Below are positions 559-13,700 of a DNA stretch of 64,000 bases, piece after piece; the stretch's first letter is position 1; each line of letters opens with the position of its first letter. Made by a program: the position numbers and the translations under genes. The notes under the pieces are model-generated. The model saw only the letters and a list, made by a program, of their open reading frames with translations, was not told the DNA's origin and made no database searches. Origin of the DNA: Armatimonadota bacterium (GTDB lineage Bacteria; Armatimonadota; SYMT01); assembly GCA_041690135.1 (NCBI GenBank), contig JAWLHY010000017.1, forward strand, positions 1-64,000. The letters are read 5' to 3'.

Positions 559-1494
559 CTACCGGCAGCCGGCTCCTGCCAGCACGGCCGGCGCGTGCAT
601 CGTCTGGCCGGGGGCGTAGCGGCGCACCATCTCCACGCAGAATTCGGCGAACTCTTCCGGCTGCTGCGGTGGGCTGGTGTGGTGCGGTGCTACCCCGCGG
701 TGTTCCGGCGTGAAGCAGAACGTCACCGTCACCTGGAACTCGTCCAGGGCTTCCATCATTCGGTCGAACCATTCCAACGCGTCGGGGCGGTAGCGGTCGG
801 CCCAGCTCAAGCCGGTGCGGACATGCCGGACGCCGAGCTTGCGCAACCACCGGACGGCGTCATCGAGGCGATGATCTTCGAAGTGGAACCACTGGCAGAT
901 GCCCATTTCCGGTGCGTATTCGGAGAAGTGCGAGGCGGCCGGTTTGGGCGTACCGTCTTCCCGCAGCAGGCCCAGGTAAAAGTGGCGATAATAGGAAGAG
1001 CCTTCCGCTTCCCGGTGGCGGGTGGTCGCGGGCCATGCTTTCGGTAAGTCATACAGGCTGTACCAGTGGATGCGGGGAACCCGCCCCAACAGCAACTCCG
1101 CAGTGCGGCGGAGCCCCCAGTCCTGCACTTCTTCTGCGCCGAAGGTTGATACCCCGACCTCCGTAACCCAGATCGGGAGGTGGGTTACGGCGCGGATCTC
1201 ATCCAGCTTGTCCGGCCACTCGTGAATCGTCCAGTGGTTCCAGTCCAGCGGGAAGCCATGGACCGCCACCACGTCGACGTGATCAAGTACGCCGTGTCCC
1301 GCCAGCCGGCGGATAAAGTTCGGGTCGATGGGGGAGATGCCTCCCAGTACCCGGGGGAGCGCGGGGTTCTCACTGGCTACCGCCTGTGCGGCCAATTTCA
1401 CCATTTCGCTGAAGGCTAGCCACTCCGTATCGATCTCAAAATCCCAGTGCGATTTGTTGTTCGGTTCGTTCCAGAACTTGACTGCTTCGATCAT
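559..1494 (-). CDS. Clan GH-A glycoside hydrolase ('beta-xylosidase'-like), apparently circularly permuted
   Basis: WNEPN acid/base motif at the N-terminus and PIWVTEVG nucleophile motif; 4-nt overlap with the upstream methyltransferase. Confidence 0.8.
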   Translation of the reverse strand: MIEAVKFWNEPNNKSHWDFEIDTEWLAFSEMVKLAAQAVASENPALPRVLGGISPIDPNFIRRLAGHGVLDHVDVVAVHGFPLDWNHWTIHEWPDKLDEIRAVTHLPIWVTEVGVSTFGAEEVQDWGLRRTAELLLGRVPRIHWYSLYDLPKAWPATTRHREAEGSSYYRHFYLGLLREDGTPKPAASHFSEYAPEMGICQWFHFEDHRLDDAVRWLRKLGVRHVRTGLSWADRYRPDALEWFDRMMEALDEFQVTVTFCFTPEHRGVAPHHTSPPQQPEEFAEFCVEMVRRYAPGQTMHAPAVLAGAGCR

Positions 1495-2291
1495 TCTCCA
1501 TCCTCATCCTGGCGATCCACGCCCTCAGGCCCGCAGGCCGGGTAAACGGCGCGCGGCTCGCCTCCCATCTCCATCCGACGACACAAGTAGACTTCCGGCT
1601 CCGGGTGTTCCAGAAGCTCGAAGCCCGCGCTGCGCAGCATAGCCTCCGAACATGCCCGGTTCGGAATCCACCAGTTGGTCGGGTCGTGCGAGTAGCGGTG
1701 CTCCACGAAGTGCAGGCGCGGGTAGCCCGGCCGGTCGAAGACTTTCTCTTCCGAGAAGGGGTAGTCTCGTTCGAGAGGCTCTACTTCTTCAGCACCTCGT
1801 TGCAGCGATTGGAAAACCAACAGGTCCCGCGCGACATGGGCATGGATCAGGTCCAGGGCCAGTAGGGGGTGACGCAGGTGGTAGAGCACTCCCATGAAGA
1901 GCACCAGGTCGAACTTCTCGCCCAGTTGCGCCACGTCGTAGACGGTTAACCGGCGGAACTCAATGTCCAGACCACTGACCTCCGCGGCGAACCGGGCCTG
2001 CGCCAGGTAGCGCTCGTCATGGTCCATGCCCAGCACCCGGTCCGCGCCGCGGCGCTTCATCTCCATCGAGTAGAAGCCGGCGTTGCAGCCGATATCGAGC
2101 ACGCTCTTGCCGCGGAGGTCCGCCGGAATCACACGCGAGAAGCGCCGCCACTTGACTGCGGGGTAGTCCCCGAGGAAGTGGTCCGGGGCAGTCTTGACCC
2201 CGCCGAGGTCGAGGTTGTGAAACCAGGTCCCGAGCTCCCGTATGCGCTGTTCAATCTGCGCGCGGGAGAGGGATGTCTCCATCATAGCCAA
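1491..2291 (-). CDS. Class I SAM-dependent methyltransferase (TIGR04290 / CmoB-like)
   Basis: VLDIGCNAGFY motif I, FDLVLFMGVLYHLRHP, DPTNWWIPN; GGAGG RBS before TTG 2291 (ATG 2285 is an alternative start). Confidence 0.9.
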   Translation of the reverse strand: MAMMETSLSRAQIEQRIRELGTWFHNLDLGGVKTAPDHFLGDYPAVKWRRFSRVIPADLRGKSVLDIGCNAGFYSMEMKRRGADRVLGMDHDERYLAQARFAAEVSGLDIEFRRLTVYDVAQLGEKFDLVLFMGVLYHLRHPLLALDLIHAHVARDLLVFQSLQRGAEEVEPLERDYPFSEEKVFDRPGYPRLHFVEHRYSHDPTNWWIPNRACSEAMLRSAGFELLEHPEPEVYLCRRMEMGGEPRAVYPACGPEGVDRQDEDGE

Positions 2292-2304
2292 GGCGGGCCT
2301 CCCT

Positions 2305-3390
2305 CTAGCTCTGCGGACCGCCTTGAATAAACGCTTCCGTCCGCTCGCGTGCCTCTCCGTCCGTGAACTGCTGCGGCGGCGTCTTCATAAAGTAGCTGGA
2401 CGGGCCGGTGAGTGCTCCGCCGATCCCCCGGTCGAGGGCCAGCTTGGCGCAGCGCACCGCATCGATGACCACGCCGGCGGAGTTGGGGGAGTCCCACACC
2501 TCGAGCTTGAGCTCGCAGTGGAGCGGCACGTTCCCGAAGGTGGTGCCTTCCATCCGGATGTAGCAGAACTTCCGGTCTTCCAGCCACGGCACGTAGTCGC
2601 TCGGCCCCACGTGGGCGTCGGCGTCCGACATGTCATAGTCGAGTTGGCTGGTGACGGCGCGTGTCTTGGAGACCTTTTTCGATTCCAGGCGCTCCCGCTC
2701 GAGCATGTTCATGAAGTCCGTGTTGCCGCCGAAGTTAAGCTGGTATGTTCGGTCGAGCCGCACGCCACGGTCGCGGAACAGGTTGGTCAGCACCCGGTGG
2801 GTAATCGTGGCCCCCACCTGGGACTTGATGTCGTCGCCGATGATCGGGAGGCGCCGCTCTTCGAAGTGCCGGCGCCAGTACTCCTGAGAGGCGATGAAGA
2901 CCGGGACGCAGTTAATGAACCCGCATCCCGCCTCAAGAGCCTGCTCGGCATACCAGCGGCTCGCCTGCTCCGACCCGACGGGGAGGTAATTGATGAGCAC
3001 GTCCGTTCCGGAGTCCTTGAGCACCCGCGCTACGTCGACCGGCGCCTCCGACGACTCTTCGACCACCTGGCTGACGTACTTGCCCAGGCCATCCATGGTC
3101 GGTCCCCGGTGCACCCGCACTCCCAGTTGCGGCACCTCCGCAAACCGATAGGTGTTGTTGGGAGACGCGAGGAGTGCCTCGCTCAGGTCTTTGCCGACCT
3201 TGGCCGCGCTCACATCGAAAGCGGCGGAGAACTCGATGTCCCGGATATGATAGCCACCCAGGTTGACGTGCATCAGGCCCGGCACGCTCTCCTGCTCATT
3301 GGCATCCCGGTAGAACTGCACGCCCTGAACCAGAGACGATGCGCAGTTGCCCGCGCCGATGATCGCTACTCGGATTCGCTGCTTACTCAC
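2305..3390 (-). CDS. ino1: myo-inositol-1-phosphate synthase
   Basis: [51 protein letters not shown]; probable GTG start at 3390 (the ORF track extends to 3510). Confidence 0.95.
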
Positions 3391-3541
3391 TTTAGAGGAC
3401 CTTCCTTCATCACCGACTCTACCGGCATCGTCGGCCGCGCCGGATGCACCAGGGGTTCCGCCGCGCGAGCCTCGCATGGGAGAGGGTGGAGAAGACTCAC
3501 GCGACGACAAACCCGCAAGCCGCGGGCGAGCTACAAAGAAG

Positions 3542-3568
3542 CTTCCCGTAGCGGGTTGGGGCTAAACC
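3542..3568 (-). promoter_or_regulatory. Putative SigB/SigF-type promoter of the ino1 operon
   Basis: GGTTT-N16-GGGAAG on the minus strand. Confidence 0.55.
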
Positions 3569-3599
3569 TGGCATGCCCTCTGTCCGAGGGGATGCAGGT

Positions 3600-3755
3600 G
3601 GTCAGGCCCCCCTGTGGGGGGTAAATGTTCGGGTGGTCAGGCCCCCCTGTGGGGGGGGGGAACATTCGGGCATTGGGCATTCGGGCGGTCAGACCCCCCT
3701 GTGGGGGGTAAACATTCGGGCATTGGGGTCCCCTGTGGGGAGGGAACATTCAGGG
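3600..3755. repeat. Cluster of 4 REP-like palindromic units (CCCCCCTGTGGGGGG core plus a CATTCGGG-type tail)
   Basis: Cores near 3607, 3642, 3694 and a degenerate one near 3730; no unique spacers. Confidence 0.8.
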
Positions 3756-3815
3756 CATCGGAAAATGCCAGTGGTCATCCTTCGACAATTTCTACGATCG
3801 TCTTGGCGAGGAGCG

Positions 3816-3890
3816 ATGGACCCGCAGCAACTTCCCAAATCTGATGAGCCTCCCGCCGAAGCACACGACTACCCGATCTCGATCCCGTGA
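3816..3890 (+). CDS. Possible 24-aa peptide MDPQQLPKSDEPPAEAHDYPISIP
   Basis: GAGGAG immediately upstream of ATG; no family recognised. Confidence 0.25.
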   Translation: MDPQQLPKSDEPPAEAHDYPISIP

Positions 3891-4056
3891 GCGACGTGGC
3901 CAGCCCCCTGAGCAGGGAAGCCGTCCTTACGAGGGGTCCTCATCCTAATCGTAATATTAGTCCTAATCTATTCGGACCCCTGGTCAGGGCACCTACCATA
4001 GATTTGCACCCATTGCTTCCTGTTCTGCTACGGGATATCCTTTGAGTCAATTGCCT

Positions 4057-4094
4057 TCATCCCTCATCCCTCATCCTTCATCCTTCATCCTTCA
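4057..4094. repeat. Heptamer tandem repeat (TCATCCY)x5
   Basis: Read directly; it ends just before the ATG at 4097. Confidence 0.9.
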
Positions 4095-4096
4095 AA

Positions 4097-4804
4097 ATGA
4101 TGCCGCGAACGATTGCGATTGGGGACATCCACGGAAACGCTTACCTCCTCGAAGGCTTGCTGCGACAGGTGAAAGAGCGAGCACAGCCAGGGGACACTCT
4201 GGTGTTCATCGGGGACTATATCGACCGGGGCGCCGACAGCCGGGAAGTGGTCGAAATGGTGCTGCGTACTCGGGAGGAGTGGAACGGCCTCGTGGTGTGC
4301 CTGCGCGGCAATCACGAGGATATGCTCCTCGACTCGCTCGGCGAGGCCGCCACACGGACCTACGATTCCGGCTTGTGGGAGTACAACGGCGGCGACGAAG
4401 CAATCCAATCGTATGCCAGTCACTATGGGGGGCCGTGGCCCGACTGCCTTCCCGAGGAACACCGCCGCTTCTTCCGGGAGCTGCGGTTGTGGCACGAGGA
4501 TGAGCACGCCTTCTACGTGCATGCGGGTCTGGAGCCAGGACAGCGGCCCGAGGAGACGGACCCCTCGGAGTTGGTCTGGATCCGCGACCGGTTCATCGAT
4601 TGCGAGTACGACTGGGGGAAGCCGGTAGTGTTCGGCCATACCCCCCAGTTCGAGGGGTCGGAAGAGATCCAGAGCATCGAAGAGATCGAGGTCTGGCGCC
4701 CGCTGAACTGGCCCGAGAAGATCGGTATCGATACCGGCGCGGCTTATGGCGGTCCGCTCTGCGCCGTGATTATGCCCGAGCGAGATTTCTTGGTAGAAGG
4801 GTAA
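4097..4804 (+). CDS. Calcineurin-like metallophosphoesterase (PPP/PphA-like Ser/Thr phosphatase)
   Basis: GDIHG, GDYIDRG, RGNHE, VHAG, FGHTP and IDTG motifs. Confidence 0.92.
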   Translation: MMPRTIAIGDIHGNAYLLEGLLRQVKERAQPGDTLVFIGDYIDRGADSREVVEMVLRTREEWNGLVVCLRGNHEDMLLDSLGEAATRTYDSGLWEYNGGDEAIQSYASHYGGPWPDCLPEEHRRFFRELRLWHEDEHAFYVHAGLEPGQRPEETDPSELVWIRDRFIDCEYDWGKPVVFGHTPQFEGSEEIQSIEEIEVWRPLNWPEKIGIDTGAAYGGPLCAVIMPERDFLVEG

Positions 4805-4816
4805 GGACCAACGGGA

Positions 4817-5377
4817 TTACGCAGCCCGCCGTTCTCGGTGGGTGAGCACCTCTTCCTCAGCCTCGTCACGGCGGCGCAGCCCGAAAAACCCGAGTAGGCC
4901 GAAAAGACCGAGCCAACCCCACTGGAACTCCTGAATGGGCTGTGCTGCCGCGGGTCCGACCGCTCCCCCCGGGTAGGCATCCCGATCGCGGTCGATAATC
5001 AGACCTTCGTTACCGGTAGCTCGCTCTCCGCCGCCGCCCGCTCCGCTATCGGGAATGTCTCCCGCATTTCCACCCATTCCGCCAACCGCACCGCGTCCGT
5101 ATTGGCCCCCACCGATGTCCCGACCCTGGCGGGTTCCGGAGACGCCACCTGTATCCGGAATGTCACCTGCATTTCCGCCGATGCCTCCACGGGTCCCGGC
5201 CCCATACTCCGGACGCACGATCGTCGAAGCGCCGCCGCTACCGGTCGGACCCTCGGTCGTGCCGATCCCCATGCCGCCGGTAGGATCGCCCAGCGAGCCC
5301 TGTCCCAGAGCCGGACCGGCGAAAGCCAGACCCGCGACAGCAGTCACGATTGCGGTTGCGGTCGCCAACGGTTTCAT
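4817..5377 (-). CDS. Secreted Gly-rich protein with a WGxxGxxG-CTERM-type tail
   Basis: Signal peptide MKPLATATAIVTAVAGLAFAGPALG; C-terminal FQWGWLGLFGLLGFFGLRRR; internal duplicated GG(I/M)GGNAGDIPD(T/S)G. Confidence 0.85.
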   Translation of the reverse strand: MKPLATATAIVTAVAGLAFAGPALGQGSLGDPTGGMGIGTTEGPTGSGGASTIVRPEYGAGTRGGIGGNAGDIPDTGGVSGTRQGRDIGGGQYGRGAVGGMGGNAGDIPDSGAGGGGERATGNEGLIIDRDRDAYPGGAVGPAAAQPIQEFQWGWLGLFGLLGFFGLRRRDEAEEEVLTHRERRAA

Positions 5378-5479
5378 CCTCGCTCCACTCCCCATCCTCA
5401 AGTTCCCATCCTCAAATGTCTATTGCCGATGCCCAATTACCCGGGCAAACTCCACCGGCACTTCGGCCGCGGGTGAACT

Positions 5480-5505
5480 TTACCCAGGCGGGATGCGCTT
5501 CAACC
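5480..5505 (-). promoter_or_regulatory. Putative SigB/SigF-type promoter
   Basis: GGTT-N16-GGGTAA upstream of the gene starting at 5377. Confidence 0.55.
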
Positions 5506-5515
5506 CGGCGGCATG

Positions 5516-5542
5516 GGTTTCGTCCTCTCCGCGTCCGGGCAA
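5516..5542 (+). promoter_or_regulatory. Putative SigB/SigF-type promoter
   Basis: GGTTT-N16-GGGCAA, 35 nt upstream of ATG 5578. Confidence 0.55.
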
Positions 5543-5577
5543 GGACCCAGCAGAGTGAGATGACTGGGAGAGCTGCC

Positions 5578-5814
5578 ATGAACCTGAACAAGCCAATCCG
5601 TGAGGAAGAAACGATCCGCCAGAACACGGGAGTATTGGATCGAGATTTGGCTCGAGATGAGGAGAACGAGCCGGAGACGGAAATCATCAACGGCGAAACC
5701 ACCGCTCCGGGAGCCTACGGGAAGACCAGCGGCGGGATGCCGAAAGGAACCCCGCCTGCCGGACAGCAGGCCCGCAATCCGGAAGGAACAACGGTAGAAG
5801 ACACTGGTTCCTGA
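5578..5814 (+). CDS. Small acidic hydrophilic hypothetical protein (78 aa)
   Basis: GGGAGAG RBS; MNLNKPIREEETIRQNTG..., rich in E/G/T; GC hairpin follows at about 5820-5846. Confidence 0.7.
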   Translation: MNLNKPIREEETIRQNTGVLDRDLARDEENEPETEIINGETTAPGAYGKTSGGMPKGTPPAGQQARNPEGTTVEDTGS

Positions 5815-5972
5815 GATATGCGGCGGATATCGGAGATTCGCCGCGCACTGCTGGATGCATGTGGGGAGAGCTTCCGCACCGAAGCTCTCCCCTCCCATTC
5901 CCGGTTCAGGTTTTAGCTGACAGGGTGATGCGGTCTTTTTCCTGCTGGCCCTGGGCGACCTGCCGGTATCCA

Positions 5973-6698
5973 TCAAGTTGCCGGACCGCGCTCGCGGACC
6001 ACTACGGGATGCTCTCGCTCGCGGCGCTTTCGTCCCATCAGTCCGAAGAGGCCCGCCAATCCAAAGATACCGATCCAACTCCAGTCGGTGCCCCGGTCCT
6101 CCACGACGGGGACGGTGACCTGCCCGACTGCGCCTTCCGGAATACCTCTGCCAACAGGTGCTCCGGCACCCCCTGTTGTACCCGTGCCTGTCGCACCGCC
6201 GGTTCCGGTCGTACCTGTCGTGCCGGCCACTCCTGGAGCACCGCCGGTATCGGGGAGCACTTCGGGCTCCGTCCCGATACCCGGCTGCTGTCCCGACTCG
6301 AGGCGATCCGGGGTGACGCCTCCTACTGTACCATCGCCGCCACCGGGTGGTGTCGGCTGCGCCTGACTGCCGGCGCCGCCGGTGGTCCTACCCGTTTCGC
6401 CAATGGCACTACCCGTTTCCCCGGTGGCTTCCGTGCCGCCCTGGGCGCCAACTCCGGCGCCGCCGGTGGCGCCCGGAGCCTGGCCGGTCGAACCCGCAGC
6501 CGATCCAGGACCGCCGGTTGTTCCGCTCCGCTGCGGAGCGGAACCGGTCCCACCCAGGGTGGACCCGCTGCCAGCGCCGATGCCCCCGCCCGTGCCGGTA
6601 CCGGCGCCCGCACCGGTACCCTGGGCCAGGACCGGCGCCGCTGTTGCCAGCCCGATGGCGATACCGGCCGTTGCGGCACCCCTAACAAATCGCTTCAT
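5973..6698 (-). CDS. Second secreted Gly/Thr-rich protein with a WGxxGxxG-CTERM-like tail
   Basis: GGAGG RBS; signal peptide MKRFVRGAATAGIAIGLATAAPVLA; C-terminal DWSWIGIFGLAGLFGLMGRKRR. Confidence 0.85.
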   Translation of the reverse strand: MKRFVRGAATAGIAIGLATAAPVLAQGTGAGAGTGTGGGIGAGSGSTLGGTGSAPQRSGTTGGPGSAAGSTGQAPGATGGAGVGAQGGTEATGETGSAIGETGRTTGGAGSQAQPTPPGGGDGTVGGVTPDRLESGQQPGIGTEPEVLPDTGGAPGVAGTTGTTGTGGATGTGTTGGAGAPVGRGIPEGAVGQVTVPVVEDRGTDWSWIGIFGLAGLFGLMGRKRREREHPVVVRERGPAT

Positions 6699-6741
6699 GT
6701 GTGCTCCTCCCATTGCGTTGCCCTCGCGTTGCGGCCCCTAT

Positions 6742-6767
6742 TTACCCGGTGCTGTCGACGCCTAACC
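6742..6767 (-). promoter_or_regulatory. Putative SigB/SigF-type promoter
   Basis: GGTT-N16-GGGTAA, 43 nt upstream of ATG 6698. Confidence 0.6.
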
Positions 6768-6785
6768 GGTCGTCGCGGAGAGGTT

Positions 6786-6811
6786 GTTTGGCGAAGGCGG
6801 GATGGGGGAAA
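6786..6811 (+). promoter_or_regulatory. Putative SigB/SigF-type promoter of the STAS gene
   Basis: GTTT-N16-GGGAAA. Confidence 0.55.
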
Positions 6812-6891
6812 GCATTGAGGGGTACCCGGAACTGTGCCGATTTTCCACGGATCGCGGAATCCGCCGGGGGCCGCCACCACTTCTAGAACGC

Positions 6892-7314
6892 ATGACTTTA
6901 TCGATTGATTCCTGTACGTTTCCCGCGCATTCCCCGACACAGACGAACGAAGACAACTGCCCATCCGGCGTCTGGGTGCGGGAGGCGGGGCGAATGGTCC
7001 TCGCGGAGATCGCCGGTGCGCTGGACATCGACCAGACTCCATCTCTCTTGAATCAGCTTCTTCCGCTCTGCCGGGCATCGCGCCGGGTCGTTCTCGATCT
7101 GCGCCGGGCTGAGTTCATCGACAGCACGGGGGTGCGCGGCCTGTTGAGTCTCCAGAAGGCCACCGAAGAAGCCGGCGGACAGTTCCGCCTGGTGACGACC
7201 GAAAACAGCCAGGTCCGGCGCATTCTCAAGCTGTTGGCCATCAACGGCCGTTTCGCCATGTTCGAGAGCGCCATCGATGCCTGGATCACCCGCTGGGACG
7301 ACGGTCTTAGTTGA
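6892..7314 (+). CDS. STAS-domain anti-sigma-factor antagonist (RsbV/SpoIIAA-like)
   Basis: IAGALDI...VVLDLRRAEFIDSTGVRGLL with the phosphorylatable Ser; start uncertain (6892 or 6994). Confidence 0.85.
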   Translation: MTLSIDSCTFPAHSPTQTNEDNCPSGVWVREAGRMVLAEIAGALDIDQTPSLLNQLLPLCRASRRVVLDLRRAEFIDSTGVRGLLSLQKATEEAGGQFRLVTTENSQVRRILKLLAINGRFAMFESAIDAWITRWDDGLS

Positions 7315-7395
7315 GAATGAAGGTAGGCTCGCGCCGAAGGGGTAGTTGAGGGACTAGGCCGGGGGCTAACATGCCCCCGGTCGTCCGGCCGCGGA

Positions 7396-7854
7396 CTACC
7401 GTCCCGATTTGCTGATCGGAACTTCGTCCTCCGTATCCTCATAGGAGTCGGAGCCGGGAGCCGCACCGACTCCCGTCGCACCGATCCCGGCGACACCGCC
7501 AATTCCCGAGGAGCCGGGTCCTCCCTCCTCAGGCGAATGGAGCCCGCCAACAACGTCGCCACCGGCAACCTGGTCGCCGAGGATCTCATCGTCCCGGGGC
7601 GGTCCGTCTGTTACCGGCCCACCCGCCGAGCGTCCGGGCGCCGGGCCTCCTTCGACCGCCGTATCGGAGGTGGCACCAAAGAGGCCGGTATCCGTGCGGG
7701 CGCTCCCTTCGGTTTCATCGGCGCCGGCGCGCGTTCCAAAGGTACCAACGTTATCCGGTCCCGGCGGATTGACCCCACCCGTGCCACTCAGGGGCAGACC
7801 ACCCGGCCCTTGTCCGTCCGCAGCGAAGAACCAGGTGAGCCGAACATCAGTCAT
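7396..7854 (-). CDS. Gly/Asp-rich low-complexity hypothetical protein
   Basis: 152-aa ORF whose start overlaps the end of the upstream gene; GGAAGG upstream. Confidence 0.65.
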   Translation of the reverse strand: MTDVRLTWFFAADGQGPGGLPLSGTGGVNPPGPDNVGTFGTRAGADETEGSARTDTGLFGATSDTAVEGGPAPGRSAGGPVTDGPPRDDEILGDQVAGGDVVGGLHSPEEGGPGSSGIGGVAGIGATGVGAAPGSDSYEDTEDEVPISKSGR

Positions 7855-8197
7855 TTGGCGTTCCTACCTTGCGCCCATCGTCGCGGTTCTTGCCCCAATG
7901 GTCGGCGCCAGGATTCGCGGTTGTGGTGCCCCCGGCGGGAGTTCCGGTATGTACGCCCTCGATCGGCACGCCGGTTTTTGTTTCGCCTCGTGGAGCCTCC
8001 AGGCGCTCCATCAGCTCCTCATGCTCGTCCTGGTGCTCTTCGTTATCGGCCACCATCGTGCCGCCCTGGCGCTTGGGGCGCGAACCTTCGTGAGTATCTC
8101 CGGGGATGGGGCCGCTCAGCGGTCGGCCCGGGTGGGGCGTGTCCGTCTTGCTCGCCTTCTCTTCCATCCGTTCGATTAACGGTTTTTCGTCCTTCAT
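7847..8197 (-). CDS. Hydrophilic acidic hypothetical protein (116 aa, MKDEKPLIERMEE...)
   Basis: GAGGGAGAGAGG RBS; corresponds to the C-terminal part of track ORF 7847..8710. Confidence 0.7.
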   Translation of the reverse strand: MKDEKPLIERMEEKASKTDTPHPGRPLSGPIPGDTHEGSRPKRQGGTMVADNEEHQDEHEELMERLEAPRGETKTGVPIEGVHTGTPAGGTTTANPGADHWGKNRDDGRKVGTPND

Positions 8198-8262
8198 GCC
8201 TCTCTCCCTCTGCGGGGAGCGCCAGTGAGCCGCCACCGGCGGTACTGCGCCCCGTAGGCACT

Positions 8263-8288
8263 TTCCCCGGCGGGTTCGGGCTCGAAAC
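8263..8288 (-). promoter_or_regulatory. Putative SigB/SigF-type promoter
   Basis: GTTT-N16-GGGGAA upstream of ATG 8197. Confidence 0.55.
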
Positions 8289-8309
8289 ACTCCGTAGAGG
8301 GTAGGGGAA

Positions 8310-8675
8310 TTACTCCGGAGTCTCTTCCACGGCATCCCGGATGCGGCGTTCGGCCACGTTGAGGTCGAGACTGCTCCGGTCGCGGAGGATGTCACGCACC
8401 GTCTGGTTGACGGTGCCGAGGTCTTCCAGCAGGTCCCGCAGGATTTCCTGCTGCTGGCGAGCGCGCGTGACCTCCCGTGGCTCGCGGACGAGATCGCGTA
8501 CCAGGGAATCCTCGGCACGGGAAGCGACCAGGGGTTCTTCCTGGTTCTCGATGTATACGAAGGTTCGGCGTCCGGGGCCGCGTTCTTCCTCAATCGGCAC
8601 GACCGCGGTGACCCGATCCGATCGTACATACCGGCCGTAGCCCAGGTGCACCAGCACCCCAGTTTGAATGCGCAT
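8310..8675 (-). CDS. Conserved-looking hypothetical protein; N-terminus weakly RemA/DUF370-like
   Basis: GAGGAG RBS; LVHLGYGRYVRSDRVTAV; helical C-terminus. Confidence 0.7.
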   Translation of the reverse strand: MRIQTGVLVHLGYGRYVRSDRVTAVVPIEEERGPGRRTFVYIENQEEPLVASRAEDSLVRDLVREPREVTRARQQQEILRDLLEDLGTVNQTVRDILRDRSSLDLNVAERRIRDAVEETPE

Positions 8676-8846
8676 AGCGGCGCGTCTCCTCTCTGGAAAA
8701 TCGCAGTCATTGCGATTATTCCCAGGGGGCGGGTGGGGCAGTCCTGGGGTGAGAGGACCCTCCTCGACCGTGGGTGTCGGGCGCGTGTTCGCGGTGCTGC
8801 GGGGCTCCGGAGAGACAGTTCGAGCTAGCCTCGTGGGTGGGCGGGA

Positions 8847-9197
8847 TCAGAAGTCACCGGCACCGTCGCAGCCACCCCCATCGTAGCCGCCACAATCCCA
8901 GCCACCGAGAGAGGCATGCCCGGTACTCGCGGCACTCCCATCGCCTCCGTGATCTGTGGAGTGGTCATCGAGAGAGCGTGAAGGAGAATAGAAAGGCTGG
9001 ATGGCCTGCTGGCCGAGCAGGGCCGCCAGCAGACCGGCAATGCGGGGGTTCAGGTTTCCGAATGGGGTATCGTAACCGAGAGCCTTGCGCATGCTGGCTA
9101 ACACCTGCAGCATAACGAAGCCAATGATCCCGGCCCAGATCAGCATGCCGGTGATGCCTAAAATCAGGATGAGCCCTTGGTGCCACATGAGGCCCAT
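8847..9197 (-). CDS. Membrane hypothetical protein with a G/D/C-rich tail
   Basis: AGGAGG RBS; N-terminal hydrophobic helix; GGWDCGGYDGGGCDGAGDF. Confidence 0.7.
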   Translation of the reverse strand: MGLMWHQGLILILGITGMLIWAGIIGFVMLQVLASMRKALGYDTPFGNLNPRIAGLLAALLGQQAIQPFYSPSRSLDDHSTDHGGDGSAASTGHASLGGWDCGGYDGGGCDGAGDF

Positions 9198-10723: not shown

Positions 10724-13700
10724 TGGAGGTAGACCAGTTCGTTGGAATTGAGCAGCGTGCGGCAGAAGGCGCGCAGGCCATGGCGCTCCACCAGGCGTTT
10801 GCACGCGGCCAGCTCTTCCTGCGCGGGCGGGCGGGCATAGGCGAGGATGAAACCGCGGACCACCTGGCCGAGCGCACCGCTGGGAGCCTCCTGCTGCAGC
10901 CTCTCCGCCAGCGCCTCCGCCATGTCGAGCGAGAAGCTGTGGTTCATCAGGGTCAACGCCTGGAGGGGCGTGGTGGTGGATGCCCGTCGCGCGACGGCAA
11001 AGGCTGGATCCGGGCAGTCGAAGTCCGTGAGGAGATCGACCCGGGCGGCGCGCGCATTCTGATGATAGACGGAGCGGCGGTAGGTCTCCGGCCCAACTTT
11101 GTCCAGCGGGACGTAGGTGGCGACGTTGTCTTCCTGATACTCGTAGAGCCGGAAGCCCGGCCCTCCCATCGCCTTGTCCAGCTTCCCGGCGATGCTCAAC
11201 ACCGTGTCTCGCACTTCTTCCGCCGCAAGCCGCCGGGGTGGGAAACGCCAGAGCAGCCGGCTGTCTCCGTCTACCTTCGCCGCGGCCTCCCGGTGGGCGG
11301 CGGACTGCTGATAGGTCTCAGAGGTCATGATCAGGCGGTGAAGCGCCTTGAGGGTCCAGGGGTGGGGGGCTGGGGGCTGGGGGCTGGGGGCCGGAGTTTT
11401 CCCGCCATTTACCTTTGTGCCTGCGTTCCCGTCACCTGATATCCGCTTGCCACCCGTAGAGTTCAGATTGCCGACTGCTGACCCCTGACCCCTGACCCCT
11501 GTGAGGTACCGTGCCAGGTAATCCAGGAGCTCCGGATGGGTGGGACGGCCGCCCATGTAGCCGAAGTCGCTGGGGGTATCGACGATGCCCGTGCCGAAGT
11601 GGTAGTGCCACACGCGGTTGGCGAGTACGCGGGGGGTGAGCGGGTTGTCCGGGGCCGTGATCCAGCGCGCGAGGGCGACCCTCCGCTCGCCTTCGGGTGT
11701 CTCCGGCGCCAACTGGTAACCCCGGCTCACCTCGCTCAGCGTGGAGAAGCTGGCGGGAACTACGGGGGCGCCCTTCTTCTGCGGATCTCCGCCGACGAAG
11801 ACATTGAAGGGTCCCGGAGCGCCGTTGAAGTGCCCGATCCACCAGCGCGGGGGCTGCGGCAGGCGGGCGATCTCCCCGTCCAGGCGCCCGATCTCCTTCC
11901 GCAGTTCGGCCAGCTTCTGCTGCTCCGCCGGGGTGACCTCGGCTTCGAAGAGGCGCCGGTCGCGCAGGGCATCCGAGAGCGGCTTGCGATCGAGAGAGCT
12001 GGCCACCTCTTTCCAGGTCTTCCCGTCAGCGGATACCTCAATACGATAGTCGCCGACGAACGGGCTGCGCGCTCCTTGCTCCACCGGGTTCCGGTTGTTC
12101 GAGAAGAAGACCCGTTCGATCCGCTCCGGGCGGGCGAAGGTGAGCGTCAGCGTGGGCCCGGCGGCGAACCACCGCGCGCCGAACCGGCCGTCAATGGTGA
12201 GGTTCACGCTGTATGCCTCGGCGAAGTCGGGAGCGATCCGGCTGGCTCCCTCGGCCTTCGTGCCGTTAACCGCCAGGGCCACATTGCGGGGCTTCTCGCC
12301 GCCGGTCCACACCTCGAACTCGTCGATGCGGTACCCGGTATTCTGTTCGGGCTGATCGTCGCGGCGCAGGACCACCAGGCGCAAAGCGCGGGCTTCCACC
12401 GGTGCGAACCGTTCCTCGGTGCCCGCGCGGTCGATGGTTGGACGGGTCCAGCGGGCTGCGAACTGCTCCTTCTTTGCCTTCGTGCGCTCCGCTACGGCGC
12501 GGTTGAGCGCCTCCAATTCGGCGGCCAACTTGTTGCGCGACTCTTCCAACGGCTTGAGCTTCGCCACCCGGACCGCTTCCTGCTCCGGCGTGGTGAGGGT
12601 CCGGTCGCCGTGCGTCACTCCCGCGAAGGTGGCATAGAGGCTGTAGTAATCACGCGCGAGCACGGGATCGAACTTGTGGTCGTGGCACCGGGCGCACCCG
12701 ACGGTGGTGCCCAGGAACGCCTCGCTGGTGGCGCGGATCATGTCGTCCAGGGTGTTCGCCCGGATCTGCGCCGCGGCGGCGGCATCCTGGTTCCCCACGT
12801 TGTCGTAGGGACCGCAGACCAGGAAGGCCGTGCCGATCTCGACCTTGGGATCGCCCTTGCCGACCACGTCCCCCGCCAGTTGTTCCAGCACGAAACGGTC
12901 GAACGGTTTGTCCTCGTTGAAGGAACGGATCACGTAGTCGCGGTACGGCCACACGTTGTTGATGAGGACGTTCCGCTCGAAACCGTTGCTCTCCCCGAAC
13001 CGGACCACGTCCAACCAGTGCCGACCCCATCGTTCGCCGTAGTGGGGCGAGGCCAGCAATCGGTCGACGAGCCGCGCCACGGCTCCCTGGCGGTCCGTCC
13101 GGCACTCCTTCACGAAGGCTTCCACTTCGGAGGGAGTGGACGGCAGGCCGTGGAGATCGTAGGTGGCCCGGCGGATCAGGGCCCGCGGGTCGGCCGGCGG
13201 GTTGGGAGTGAGCCCCTTCTCCCGGAGTTTCGCGAAGACAAAGCGGTCGACCGGATTGCGGCTCCAGGCGGCGGGGATCCCCTTGACCTGGGGTGGGGCG
13301 GACGTGGAGAGGGCGCGATACGCCCACCAGGAACGGTCCGCCTTGGTGCGCTCTTGTAGAACCAACTGCTCGGGCCAGGGCGCGCCCGCCGCAATCCAGC
13401 GCCGCAGAAGGATGGCCTCTTCCGGGGTAAGGGGCTCGCCTTTTTCCGGCATCTCCGGCTTCTGCCCCTTCGGCGCGATCGTCCGCGTGTAAAGTGGGCT
13501 TTGGTCCGGCTTTCCGGGGACCAGCGCGGTGCCCAGGTCCCCGCCTTTGAGCATTGCGGCGCGAGAAGTCAGATCGAAGCTGCCCTTGGCGTTGTCCGGC
13601 CGGTGACAGCTCACGCACTTCTGCTCCAGGACCGAAGCGATCTTCGATCGGAAGAAGGCGGCATCCACCGGGGCCGCCGGCGCGGGGGCCGGTTTGGGCG

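Follow-up and report, generated by a model that had tools for sequence, protein, structure and literature searches.

The question raised by this locus is why six transcription units, crowded into 4.75 kb and situated 3.5 kb from the end of a contig of an Armatimonadota bacterium (GenBank assembly GCA_041690135.1, contig JAWLHY010000017.1), are all preceded by the same pair of short sequence boxes. The stretch analysed, referred to as the window, comprises the first 64 kb of this contig. The units concerned encode two glycine-rich proteins with a WGxxGxxG tail (WG1 and WG2), three small acidic proteins (sp78, sp116 and acid152), a single-domain STAS protein and an operon that begins with ino1. 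The answer proposed here is that the six sites are probably promoters read by one or more sigma factors of the SigB/SigF family (group 3), and that nowhere else is a general stress regulon, spread over the whole genome with roughly 150-300 promoters, so densely clustered.

The pattern searched was G(G/T)TT-N16-GGGNA(A/G) (GKTT-N16-GGGNAR). It is found seven times in the window as compared with a mean of 1.75 per shuffle (100 shuffles, one of which reached seven), and six of the seven matches fall between 3542 and 8288, where all of them are non-coding and each is directed at the open reading frame (ORF) downstream of it. The original prediction had named six such sites, and each was recovered within 1 nt of its proposed position. 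In the following list the scores refer to an iterated position matrix trained on the genome, for which a score of 16 corresponds to about 10% false discovery with reversed sequences as control; the second value was obtained with the site's own contig left out, the matrix then being trained on 142 sites from other contigs.

3542-3567, minus strand, GTTTAGCCCCAACCCGCTACGGGAAG, regular-expression match and site for the ino1 operon; score 14.5, or 14.8 with its contig left out
5480-5505, minus strand, GGTTGAAGCGCATCCCGCCTGGGTAA, site for WG1 with a weak -35 box and a strong -10 box; score 15.9 with and without its contig, hence borderline
5517-5542, plus strand, GTTTCGTCCTCTCCGCGTCCGGGCAA, site for sp78; score 22.0, or 21.7 with its contig left out
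6742-6767, minus strand, GGTTAGGCGTCGACAGCACCGGGTAA, site for WG2; score 17.2 (N15 reading) or 16.5 (N16), and 16.6 with its contig left out
6786-6811, plus strand, GTTTGGCGAAGGCGGGATGGGGGAAA, site for the STAS gene; score 16.9, or 16.7 with its contig left out
8263-8288, minus strand, GTTTCGAGCCCGAACCCGCCGGGGAA, site for the sp116-acid152 pair; score 21.9, or 21.6 with its contig left out

From the end of the box to the likely start codon the distance is 152 nt for ino1 (GTG at 3390), 103 nt for WG1 (ATG at 5377), 36 nt for sp78 (ATG at 5578), 44 nt for WG2 (ATG at 6698), 81 nt for the STAS gene (ATG at 6892) and 66 nt for sp116 (ATG at 8197), in agreement with the 35-150 nt given earlier. 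Four of the sites stand back to back, namely 5480-5505(-) and 5517-5542(+) with 11 nt between them as well as 6742(-) and 6786-6811(+) with a gap of 18-19 nt (19 nt in the N15 reading, 6742-6766), and these are two of the eight back-to-back divergent site pairs that the matrix scan finds in the genome. The spacer sequences of the six sites are unrelated to one another. No sigma-70-type consensus promoter was found in 3300-9000.

Two further candidates were rejected. The seventh match, at 12991-13016(-), lies inside a coding region and scores 9.3. A weaker site that had been proposed at 8718-8743(-), GACT-N16-GGGAAT upstream of a RemA-like gene, scores only 3.3 and carries in its -35 box an A at position 2 and a C at position 3, neither of which is enriched genome-wide; this part of the original prediction found no support, and the site is placed outside the regulon.

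Genome-wide, the pattern occurs 353 times in 9.10 Mb, which equals 2.48 matches per 64 kb and predicts about 0.18 matches for the 4.75-kb stretch in which six are present. Under a Poisson model the probability of at least six matches is about 5e-8 per interval of this size and about 1e-4 after correction for about 1,900 such intervals. No other cluster in the 9.1-Mb genome is as dense, the runner-up holding three matches, and with the genome-trained matrix this one again ranks first with six sites as opposed to five. Since the exact pattern was drawn from these same sites, the cluster statistic is post hoc, and independent tests were therefore sought in the spacing of the boxes over the whole genome and in the matrix built without this contig. 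Other dense clusters of 4-5 sites per 5 kb in the source genome (G000), which may be similar stress gene clusters, are located at G000:C3:659707-664183, C12:267316-268907 and C4:150993-155739; the first of these includes a GH1-like gene and small unannotated ORFs.

For the genome-wide tests, 7,039 genes and their start codons were taken from a simple codon-usage caller, yielding 5,383 upstream regions. In non-coding DNA up to 250 nt 5' of a gene on the same strand, the pattern is present 103 times with a spacer of N16, 83 times with N17 and 53 times with N15, as compared with 23-43 times at spacers 9-14 and 18-24. The related GTTT-Nx-GGGNAN gives 53 (N15), 112 (N16) and 76 (N17) matches versus about 21 at other spacers, and GTTT-N16-GGGNAA is found in 48 upstream regions versus 4.75 at control spacers, all nine fixed bases being specific. 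On the matrix, 146 of the 5,383 upstream regions reach a score of 16 versus 14 in reversed controls, and 319 versus 78 pass a looser cut. Non-coding DNA, which makes up 17.5% of the genome, holds 163 of the 353 pattern matches. Enrichment of the motif upstream of genes, which had been put forward as a check, is strong and specific in spacing by the spacer, base and matrix tests alike. The earlier notion of a co-regulated stress module is supported, the proposed checks that were run having all turned out in its favour; the regulon, however, extends over the entire genome, and the window holds only its densest cluster.

An unbiased scan of upstream DNA, in which every pair of 4-mers was counted at spacers 13-21, placed GTTT-N17-GGTA second among the non-repeat dyads (68 versus 12.6). 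Its neighbours in rank are the sigma-70-like TTGA-N19-TATA and the unexplained AGGA-N17-CGAA. The latter, in its fuller form (R)AGGA-N17-CGAAc, is found 112-113 times in upstream regions versus about 27 times at control spacers; its sites lie 0-300 nt before start codons and have spacers that are all different (examples are found in G000:C15 upstream of 19453 and in C4 upstream of 69714), and it resembles a promoter recognised by a further alternative sigma factor.

Refinement of the motif leads to the consensus (C/G)(C/G)GTTT(C/G)-N-(C)(C)GGG(T>A)A(A)(A/G) with a spacer peak at N16. By the per-base, spacer and matrix tests, GTTT-N16(15-17)-GGG(T/A)A(A) fits the boxes as well as the geometry of SigB/SigF-type promoters, and the proposed resemblance to Bacillus SigB and actinobacterial SigF promoters extends to both published consensus sequences. 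For Bacillus SigB this is GTTTAA-N14-GGGTAT and for the Bacillales KTTTW-N12-17-GGGWAW (PMC9847131); the former, written as GTTT-N16-GGG, has the same geometry as the GTTT-N16-GGG(T/A)A observed here, although the sites in this genome show no A/T preference after GTTT and prefer C or G instead. For SigF of M. smegmatis the consensus is GTTT-N(14-19)-GGGTA (PMC4694148, Table 1), mostly with N15-16 and defined from a sigF mutant.

Candidate sigma factors for such promoters are abundant. Nine genes score over the cut-off (234.35 bits) of TIGR02980, the model for SigB/SigF/SigG, with 284.7 bits for the best, and a tenth falls just below it; in all, 38 matches at E <=0.001 are found genome-wide, most of them weak. 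Rescoring of four translated sigma proteins confirmed the subfamily, a single one of them lying at the cut-off (234.2). SigB-like paralogues are located, among other places, at C1:322717, C1:1538990, C3:672766, C8:325315 and C11:254251. The equivalog models are not reached, with 184-217 bits versus 315 for TIGR02941 (Bacillus SigB) and 173-230 bits versus 372 for NF005514 (SigF), and the sigma genes are therefore to be regarded as members of the subfamily rather than as demonstrated orthologues of SigB or SigF; the likeness to mycobacterial SigF in particular has to be read in this way. For a motif-bearing sigma paralogue the best match among solved structures is 8x6g_H, a sigma chain of 256 amino acids (E 1.6e-52); the alignment with this chain, as with sigma F of 1l0o, runs from end to end. 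The record of 8x6g reads 'RNA polymerase sigma factor' and is presumably that of the staphylococcal SigB holoenzyme.

One of the sigma genes is located in a STAS-RsbW-sigma operon on contig C8:

324453-324794, STAS protein
324817-325302, RsbW-type kinase (HATPase_c_2)
325315-326106, sigma factor

Genome-wide, the partner-switching genes amount to 27 STAS genes, about 25 HATPase_c_2 matches over the cut-off and 13 SpoIIE-type PP2C phosphatases, so that the SigB/F-type sigma, RsbW and PP2C genes for which the original prediction had suggested a search are all present. A credible upstream site is carried by four sigma paralogues (scores 20.1, 21.2, 14.9 and 13.0), a fifth match being inside coding DNA; for a score of 12 the background is 88 of 1,498 random genes (5.9%).

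The targets were assembled from the 88 genes that have GTTT-N16/17-GGG(T/A)A(A/C/T) 5-200 nt upstream. Pfam was run on 80 of them; the other eight are five ORFs of very small size and three genes that share a contig with the window. These 80 include a long catalase, two DUF892 proteins, CsbD, three KGG/LEA_5 proteins, YtxH, YflT, Usp, two BON and two PRC-barrel proteins, hemerythrin and Transgly_assoc; the enzymes comprise an SDR protein, two SRPBCC proteins and a glycogen-branching-like enzyme, and the regulators three SigB-like sigma factors, two STAS proteins and an RsbW-like kinase. No Pfam family was found for 22 of the 80. A site is present at all three DUF892 genes and at the genome's single CsbD gene. 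A genome search with the short KGG model yielded one gene, as compared with the three motif-bearing proteins in which Pfam detects KGG. Judged from these domains, hallmark proteins together with the regulator's own genes, the target content is that expected of a SigB-type general stress regulon. In B. subtilis, katE, csbD, ytxH, yflT and yhdF are members of the SigB regulon, and the overlap accordingly covers the KatE-type catalase, CsbD, YtxH, YflT and a YhdF-type SDR. A further named member is gsiB (PMC9847131), which adds the KGG/GsiB-like proteins. Besides sigF itself, mycobacterial SigF has among its targets hemerythrin, an anti-sigma antagonist and genes of trehalose and glycogen (PMC4694148).

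Among the motif-bearing genes, GH1-like domains are found in two, L021 (G000:C16:30958-33363) and L024 (G000:C3:660741-662048), in one of which the domain is joined to an RmlD-type reductase; if the glycosidase-like member of the ino1 operon is added, they suggest a group of sugar-modifying enzymes induced by stress. An identical 27-mer, GTTTACGCCCCGAGGGGGTGCGGGGAC, stands 5' of four genes (C1:833906, C3:530877, C14:166917 and C11:209599). It is a repeat that mimics the promoter and therefore gives rise to false positives in the regulon list.

In order to compare the locus with its relatives, 31 genomes of the phylum were used, i.e. the source genome and 30 relatives, of which G005 is the closest. 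A DNA search of the 30 relatives did not find the cluster conserved as a unit: the RemA-like gene matches over its full length, G005 gives a short match at sp78, and the rest are short. In the seven relatives inspected, out of 27 loci returned, the cluster is not located beside the RemA-like gene. Homologues of sp78 and sp116 occur in G005 only, and among the five relatives searched for it (G004-G008) the ino1 operon is likewise found in G005 only, where ino1, the methyltransferase and the glycosidase-like genes are syntenic with 82, 78 and 79% identity. In G005 the orthologues of sp78, sp116 and ino1 are scattered over three contigs, and each of them has GTTT-N16-GGGNAN upstream, the boxes being kept and the spacers diverged. 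For sp78 the site is GTTTCGCCGGTCTTCCGCCCGGGAAG at the equivalent position, again with both boxes kept and a different spacer; for sp116 it is GTTTCACCGCCCTCCGGATCGGGCAA about 76 nt upstream; and for ino1 the boxes are identical to those of the window (GGTTTAG...GGGAAG, N16) and lie 100 nt before the start. The boxes of sp116 and ino1 were located by pattern search, pairwise MAFFT alignments having misplaced them. In this G005 locus (L168, G005:C22:11346-15410) a sigma gene of the SigB/F/G family (about 351-1019, 237 bits) is positioned directly 5' of ino1 (from 1492), and the GTTT-N16-GGGAAG site lies between the sigma gene and the operon.

Independently of annotation, GTTT-N16-GGGTAA was counted on both strands and compared with the same pattern read backwards, a search with broad spacers being too noisy:

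G000 (source genome), 33 matches, 7 backwards
G004, 15 matches, 0 backwards
G005, 18 matches, 1 backwards
G006, 15 matches, 3 backwards
G007, 15 matches, 1 backwards
G008, 24 matches, 1 backwards
G016, 15 matches, 4 backwards
G023, 30 matches, 5 backwards

In most of the other 23 genomes the pattern is not enriched over the backwards control. All 10 DUF892 genes that could be tested in the seven relatives with enrichment carry a site of at least 14.8 within 300 nt upstream, as opposed to none of five in G010 and G025, and reversed controls never exceed 4.8; in G023 a KGG-repeat gene is found downstream of a site. Conservation upstream of orthologues, also suggested beforehand as a check, is observed at the three G005 orthologues as well as at the DUF892 genes of the seven relatives.

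The genes behind the six sites, together with one gene that lies among them, are as follows:

559-1494, minus strand, glycosidase-like protein (weak Glyco_hydro_cc match, E 0.0026)
1491-2285, minus strand, TIGR04290-family methyltransferase (396 bits, over the cut-off of 300)
2305-3390, minus strand, ino1 (Pfam Inos-1-P_synth E 2e-36; TIGR03450 548 bits, under the cut-off of 638)
559-3390, minus strand, ino1-methyltransferase-glycosidase-like operon made up of the three preceding genes
4097-4804, plus strand, calcineurin-like metallophosphoesterase, Ser/Thr-phosphatase-like (Metallophos E 6e-16, NF008516 E 3e-14)
4817-5377, minus strand, WG1, 26% Gly, signal-peptide-like N-terminus and C-terminal tail WGWLGLFGLLGFFGLRRR
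5578-5814, plus strand, sp78, 78 amino acids, acidic, isoelectric point 4.4, grand average of hydropathy (GRAVY) -1.19, 13% Gly
5973-6698, minus strand, WG2, Gly/Thr-rich with 29% Gly, signal-peptide-like N-terminus and tail WSWIGIFGLAGLFGLMGRKRR
6892-7314, plus strand, single-domain STAS protein of the RsbV/SpoIIAA anti-sigma-factor-antagonist type
7396-7854, minus strand, acid152, 152 amino acids, isoelectric point 4.1, 24% Gly, GRAVY -0.40
7847-8197, minus strand, sp116, 116 amino acids, acidic, GRAVY -1.39, 14% Gly

The two WGxxGxxG-tailed proteins, the motif-bearing STAS gene and the ino1/methyltransferase/glycosidase-like operon are present as originally described. In the tails of WG1 and WG2, W-G-x-x-G-x-x-G precedes a hydrophobic stretch, apparently a helix, and then a basic cluster, as in WGxxGxxG-CTERM, and no other protein of the genome matches the WGxxGxxG family model. 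On NF041742 (WGxxGxxG_fam, cut-off 35) WG1 reaches 36.2 bits, whereas WG2, despite an architecture like that of WG1, stays under the cut-offs with 31.1 (35) on NF041742 and 20.1 (24) on NF038039 (WGxxGxxG-CTERM), so that only WG1 passes a curated cut-off. The family was not found in the 30 relatives, and in a large protein collection WG1 has a single further homologue, 81% identical. The WGxxGxxG tail has been described as a possible orphan sorting signal without a known sorting enzyme, and that preprint makes no mention of a regulatory setting such as the SigB-type promoter in front of both genes here (bioRxiv 10.1101/2023.06.07.544157).

For sp78, sp116 and acid152 no Pfam or NCBIfam family was found, and in the protein atlas sp116 gave only matches of at most 0.87, to unnamed clusters. 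The ORFs of sp116 and acid152 overlap by 8 nt and therefore probably form one transcription unit; acid152 itself is a probable gene with weak codon support (log-likelihood 2.2, GC3, i.e. G+C content at third codon positions, 0.65). Hydrophilins are characterised by more than 6% Gly and high hydrophilicity. Of the three acidic proteins that had been called hydrophilin-like, sp78 and sp116 agree with this definition in Gly content and GRAVY, whereas acid152 lies outside it because of a GRAVY of only -0.40 in spite of its Gly content.

The STAS protein matches Pfam STAS_2 (E 4e-13) and STAS (E 8e-12) and reaches 44.3 bits on TIGR00377, under the cut-off of 53.45. It contains the sequence D-S-T-G (D77-S78-x-G80), D-S-x-G being invariant in four STAS proteins of the genome including that of the C8 operon. 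A conserved phosphorylatable Ser in D-S-x-G is a mark of antagonist-type STAS proteins. By its sequence, the window STAS protein qualifies as an anti-sigma-factor antagonist and is a putative kinase partner. No paper on TIGR04290 / Rta_06860 was found in the literature search; the product of the ino1 operon is plausibly an inositol-derived protective solute or envelope component.

No site scoring at least 7 was found upstream of the metallophosphoesterase gene, which lies inside the cluster; the heptamer CCTTCAT is repeated 5.9 times at 4054-4094, directly before its ATG at 4097. Just 5' of the ino1 site, at 3597-3727, there are tandem units of 35-50 nt with the palindrome CCCCCCTGTGGGGGG. Related units (CCTGACCACCCGAACA...) dominate the repeat-derived upstream dyads genome-wide, which makes this segment part of a family of dispersed intergenic repeats. 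A perfect 12-bp stem without a T-run (5863-5892, GGGGAGAGCTTC...GAAGCTCTCCCC), located where the sp78 and WG2 genes converge, is a possible bidirectional terminator. GC3 is 0.63-0.66 in WG1, WG2, sp78 and acid152 as compared with 0.79-0.84 in neighbouring genes; amino-acid bias contributes to this difference, which fits either recent acquisition or such a bias. The RemA-like protein at 8310-8675(-) has 121 amino acids and a weakly RemA-like N-terminus (Pfam E 0.009). Identities amount to 82-88% in Abditibacteriaceae/Armatimonadota genomes and to 68-74% in many cyanobacteria (Tolypothrix, Chroococcidiopsidaceae, Myxacorys), a conservation across phyla that is unusually strong for a small uncharacterised protein. 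The best matches of this one protein make the organism Abditibacteria-like and speak against a planctomycete, which neighbouring genes of DUF1501/DUF1553-like appearance had suggested.

By analogy with Bacillus and Mycobacterium, RsbW-type anti-sigma kinases would hold the sigma factor in the unstressed cell. Upon stress, activated PP2C phosphatases would dephosphorylate the STAS antagonists, which would then capture the kinase and set the sigma factor free, and RNA polymerase with the freed sigma factor would start a few bases 3' of the GGG(T/A)A box. The window would then supply the two WGxxGxxG-tailed, Gly-rich envelope proteins together with two or three hydrophilic acidic proteins of small size, a further STAS antagonist acting as a feedback or branching element and the product of the ino1 operon.

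Among the systems that invite comparison, B. subtilis SigB shares with the present genome the STAS-RsbW-sigma operon, the PP2C phosphatases and the motif at sigma and STAS genes, but it is a single factor as opposed to about ten paralogues here, it belongs to another phylum, and much of the cargo described above is lineage-specific. Streptomyces, with many SigB-like paralogues of similar promoter specificity, large sets of STAS, RsbW and PP2C proteins and a large high-G+C soil genome, offers a likeness for the network as a whole, although the phylum differs and there is no known link to development here. Mycobacterial SigF (M. smegmatis, M. tuberculosis) is comparable in its high-G+C background and in its multiple RsbW and STAS partners (PMC7693655).

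Several observations weigh against the reading as a SigB/SigF-type regulon. At the level of the sites, those at 3542 (14.5) and 5480 (15.9) are under the 10% false-discovery threshold, and the G005 ino1 site scores only 8.7 on the matrix. When coding DNA is included, 273 sites of at least 16 are found in the whole genome (183 of them non-coding) versus 105 in reversed sequences, and many matches outside upstream regions are therefore due to chance. The caller on which the upstream regions depend missed WG2 and acid152. At the level of the regulators, the sigma genes reach 202-217 bits on the Bacillus SigB equivalog model, for which 315 are required, sites are present at just three of the 27 STAS genes and at 4-5 of the ten sigma genes, and the canonical C8 operon has only a weak GGTT...GGGTAG match. 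Moreover, a SigB/F/G sigma over the cut-off is found in 23 of the 31 genomes, whereas clear motif enrichment is found in about eight, the source genome included; the presence of the sigma factor therefore does not predict the motif, for which it is taken to be necessary.

Of the other explanations, the one that survives best retains the sigma family but regards the window as a specialised programme, serving desiccation, dormancy or cyst formation, or envelope remodelling, under one dedicated paralogue and apart from any single general stress response. SigF in sporulation provides the model of such a dedicated paralogue. The ten SigB-like paralogues, including three near-identical orphan ones with consensus sites upstream, would leave room for it, and so would the cargo, in which lineage-specific Gly-rich envelope proteins and hydrophilic proteins take the place of hallmark stress genes. 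In G005 the motif is enclosed between a SigB-like sigma gene and the ino1 operon, and desiccation tolerance in Anabaena/Nostoc is governed by a group 3 sigma factor, SigJ (PMC2779892). The window sites, however, share consensus and spacing with those of the catalase, CsbD, KGG and DUF892 genes; the matrix reveals no sub-motif by which the two groups could be told apart, and the flanks are low in information. Such a separate programme is considered unlikely.

Considerably less probable is an explanation by which a sigma factor outside the SigB/F/G family, of the extracytoplasmic function (ECF) type or another, reads the motif, the likeness to SigB and SigF being convergent. The many additional sigma-70-family genes, to which the mostly weak TIGR02980 matches belong, would supply candidates, and many relatives possess a SigB/F/G gene without motif enrichment. 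Against this stands the agreement of both consensus and spacing with two regulons defined by experiment, as well as the motif at SigB-like, STAS and RsbW-like genes, as expected for autoregulation. The targets overlap in addition with those of the same two regulons, in KGG/GsiB-like proteins (PMC9847131) and in hemerythrin and the anti-sigma antagonist (PMC4694148). That the local cluster reflects chance, composition or a dispersed repeat without regulatory meaning is strongly disfavoured: the pattern was indeed defined from these very sites and repeat families such as that of the 27-mer GTTTACGCCCCGAGGGGGTGCGGGGAC do produce false matches, but the six spacers are unrelated, every site is oriented to its downstream gene, four of the six score at least 16 on the matrix trained without their contig, under two definitions no denser cluster exists in the genome, and three of the sites are conserved in G005.

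Beyond the preferred reading of the six sites as promoters of a SigB/SigF-type regulon, a wider one can be offered tentatively, as a whole that is rather doubtful. Abditibacteria-like Armatimonadota would possess a large stress and desiccation network run by about ten SigB paralogues, the densest node of which would be a lineage-specific protective-coat module composed of both WG proteins, the new hydrophilin-like proteins, the STAS feedback and an inositol-derived protectant pathway. As part of the same wider reading, the promoter code and the DUF892, KGG/GsiB-like, CsbD and catalase targets would be common to Firmicutes and Actinobacteria, and such a shared code with shared core targets would argue for an ancient regulon common to the Terrabacteria.

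Experimental definitions of SigB/SigF general stress regulons come mainly from Firmicutes and Actinobacteria, and no account of such a regulon in Armatimonadota or Abditibacteriota turned up in a full-text literature search. The mechanism proposed is the textbook one, and the gain therefore lies in range and cargo and not in a new principle; novelty attaches to the phylum, to how large the paralogue family is and to a good part of the cargo. For a barely studied phylum of soil bacteria, of which very few members are in culture, there is now a testable promoter model and a list of about 150 target genes, and the promoter code is conserved in at least four of its families. Likely stress effectors are sp78, sp116, acid152, WG1 and WG2, and a likely stress pathway is encoded by the ino1-methyltransferase operon. 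The promoters upstream of WG1 and WG2 would be the first regulatory clue to the orphan WGxxGxxG-CTERM signal, and, if the wider reading is true, this signal would obtain its first regulatory and functional context.

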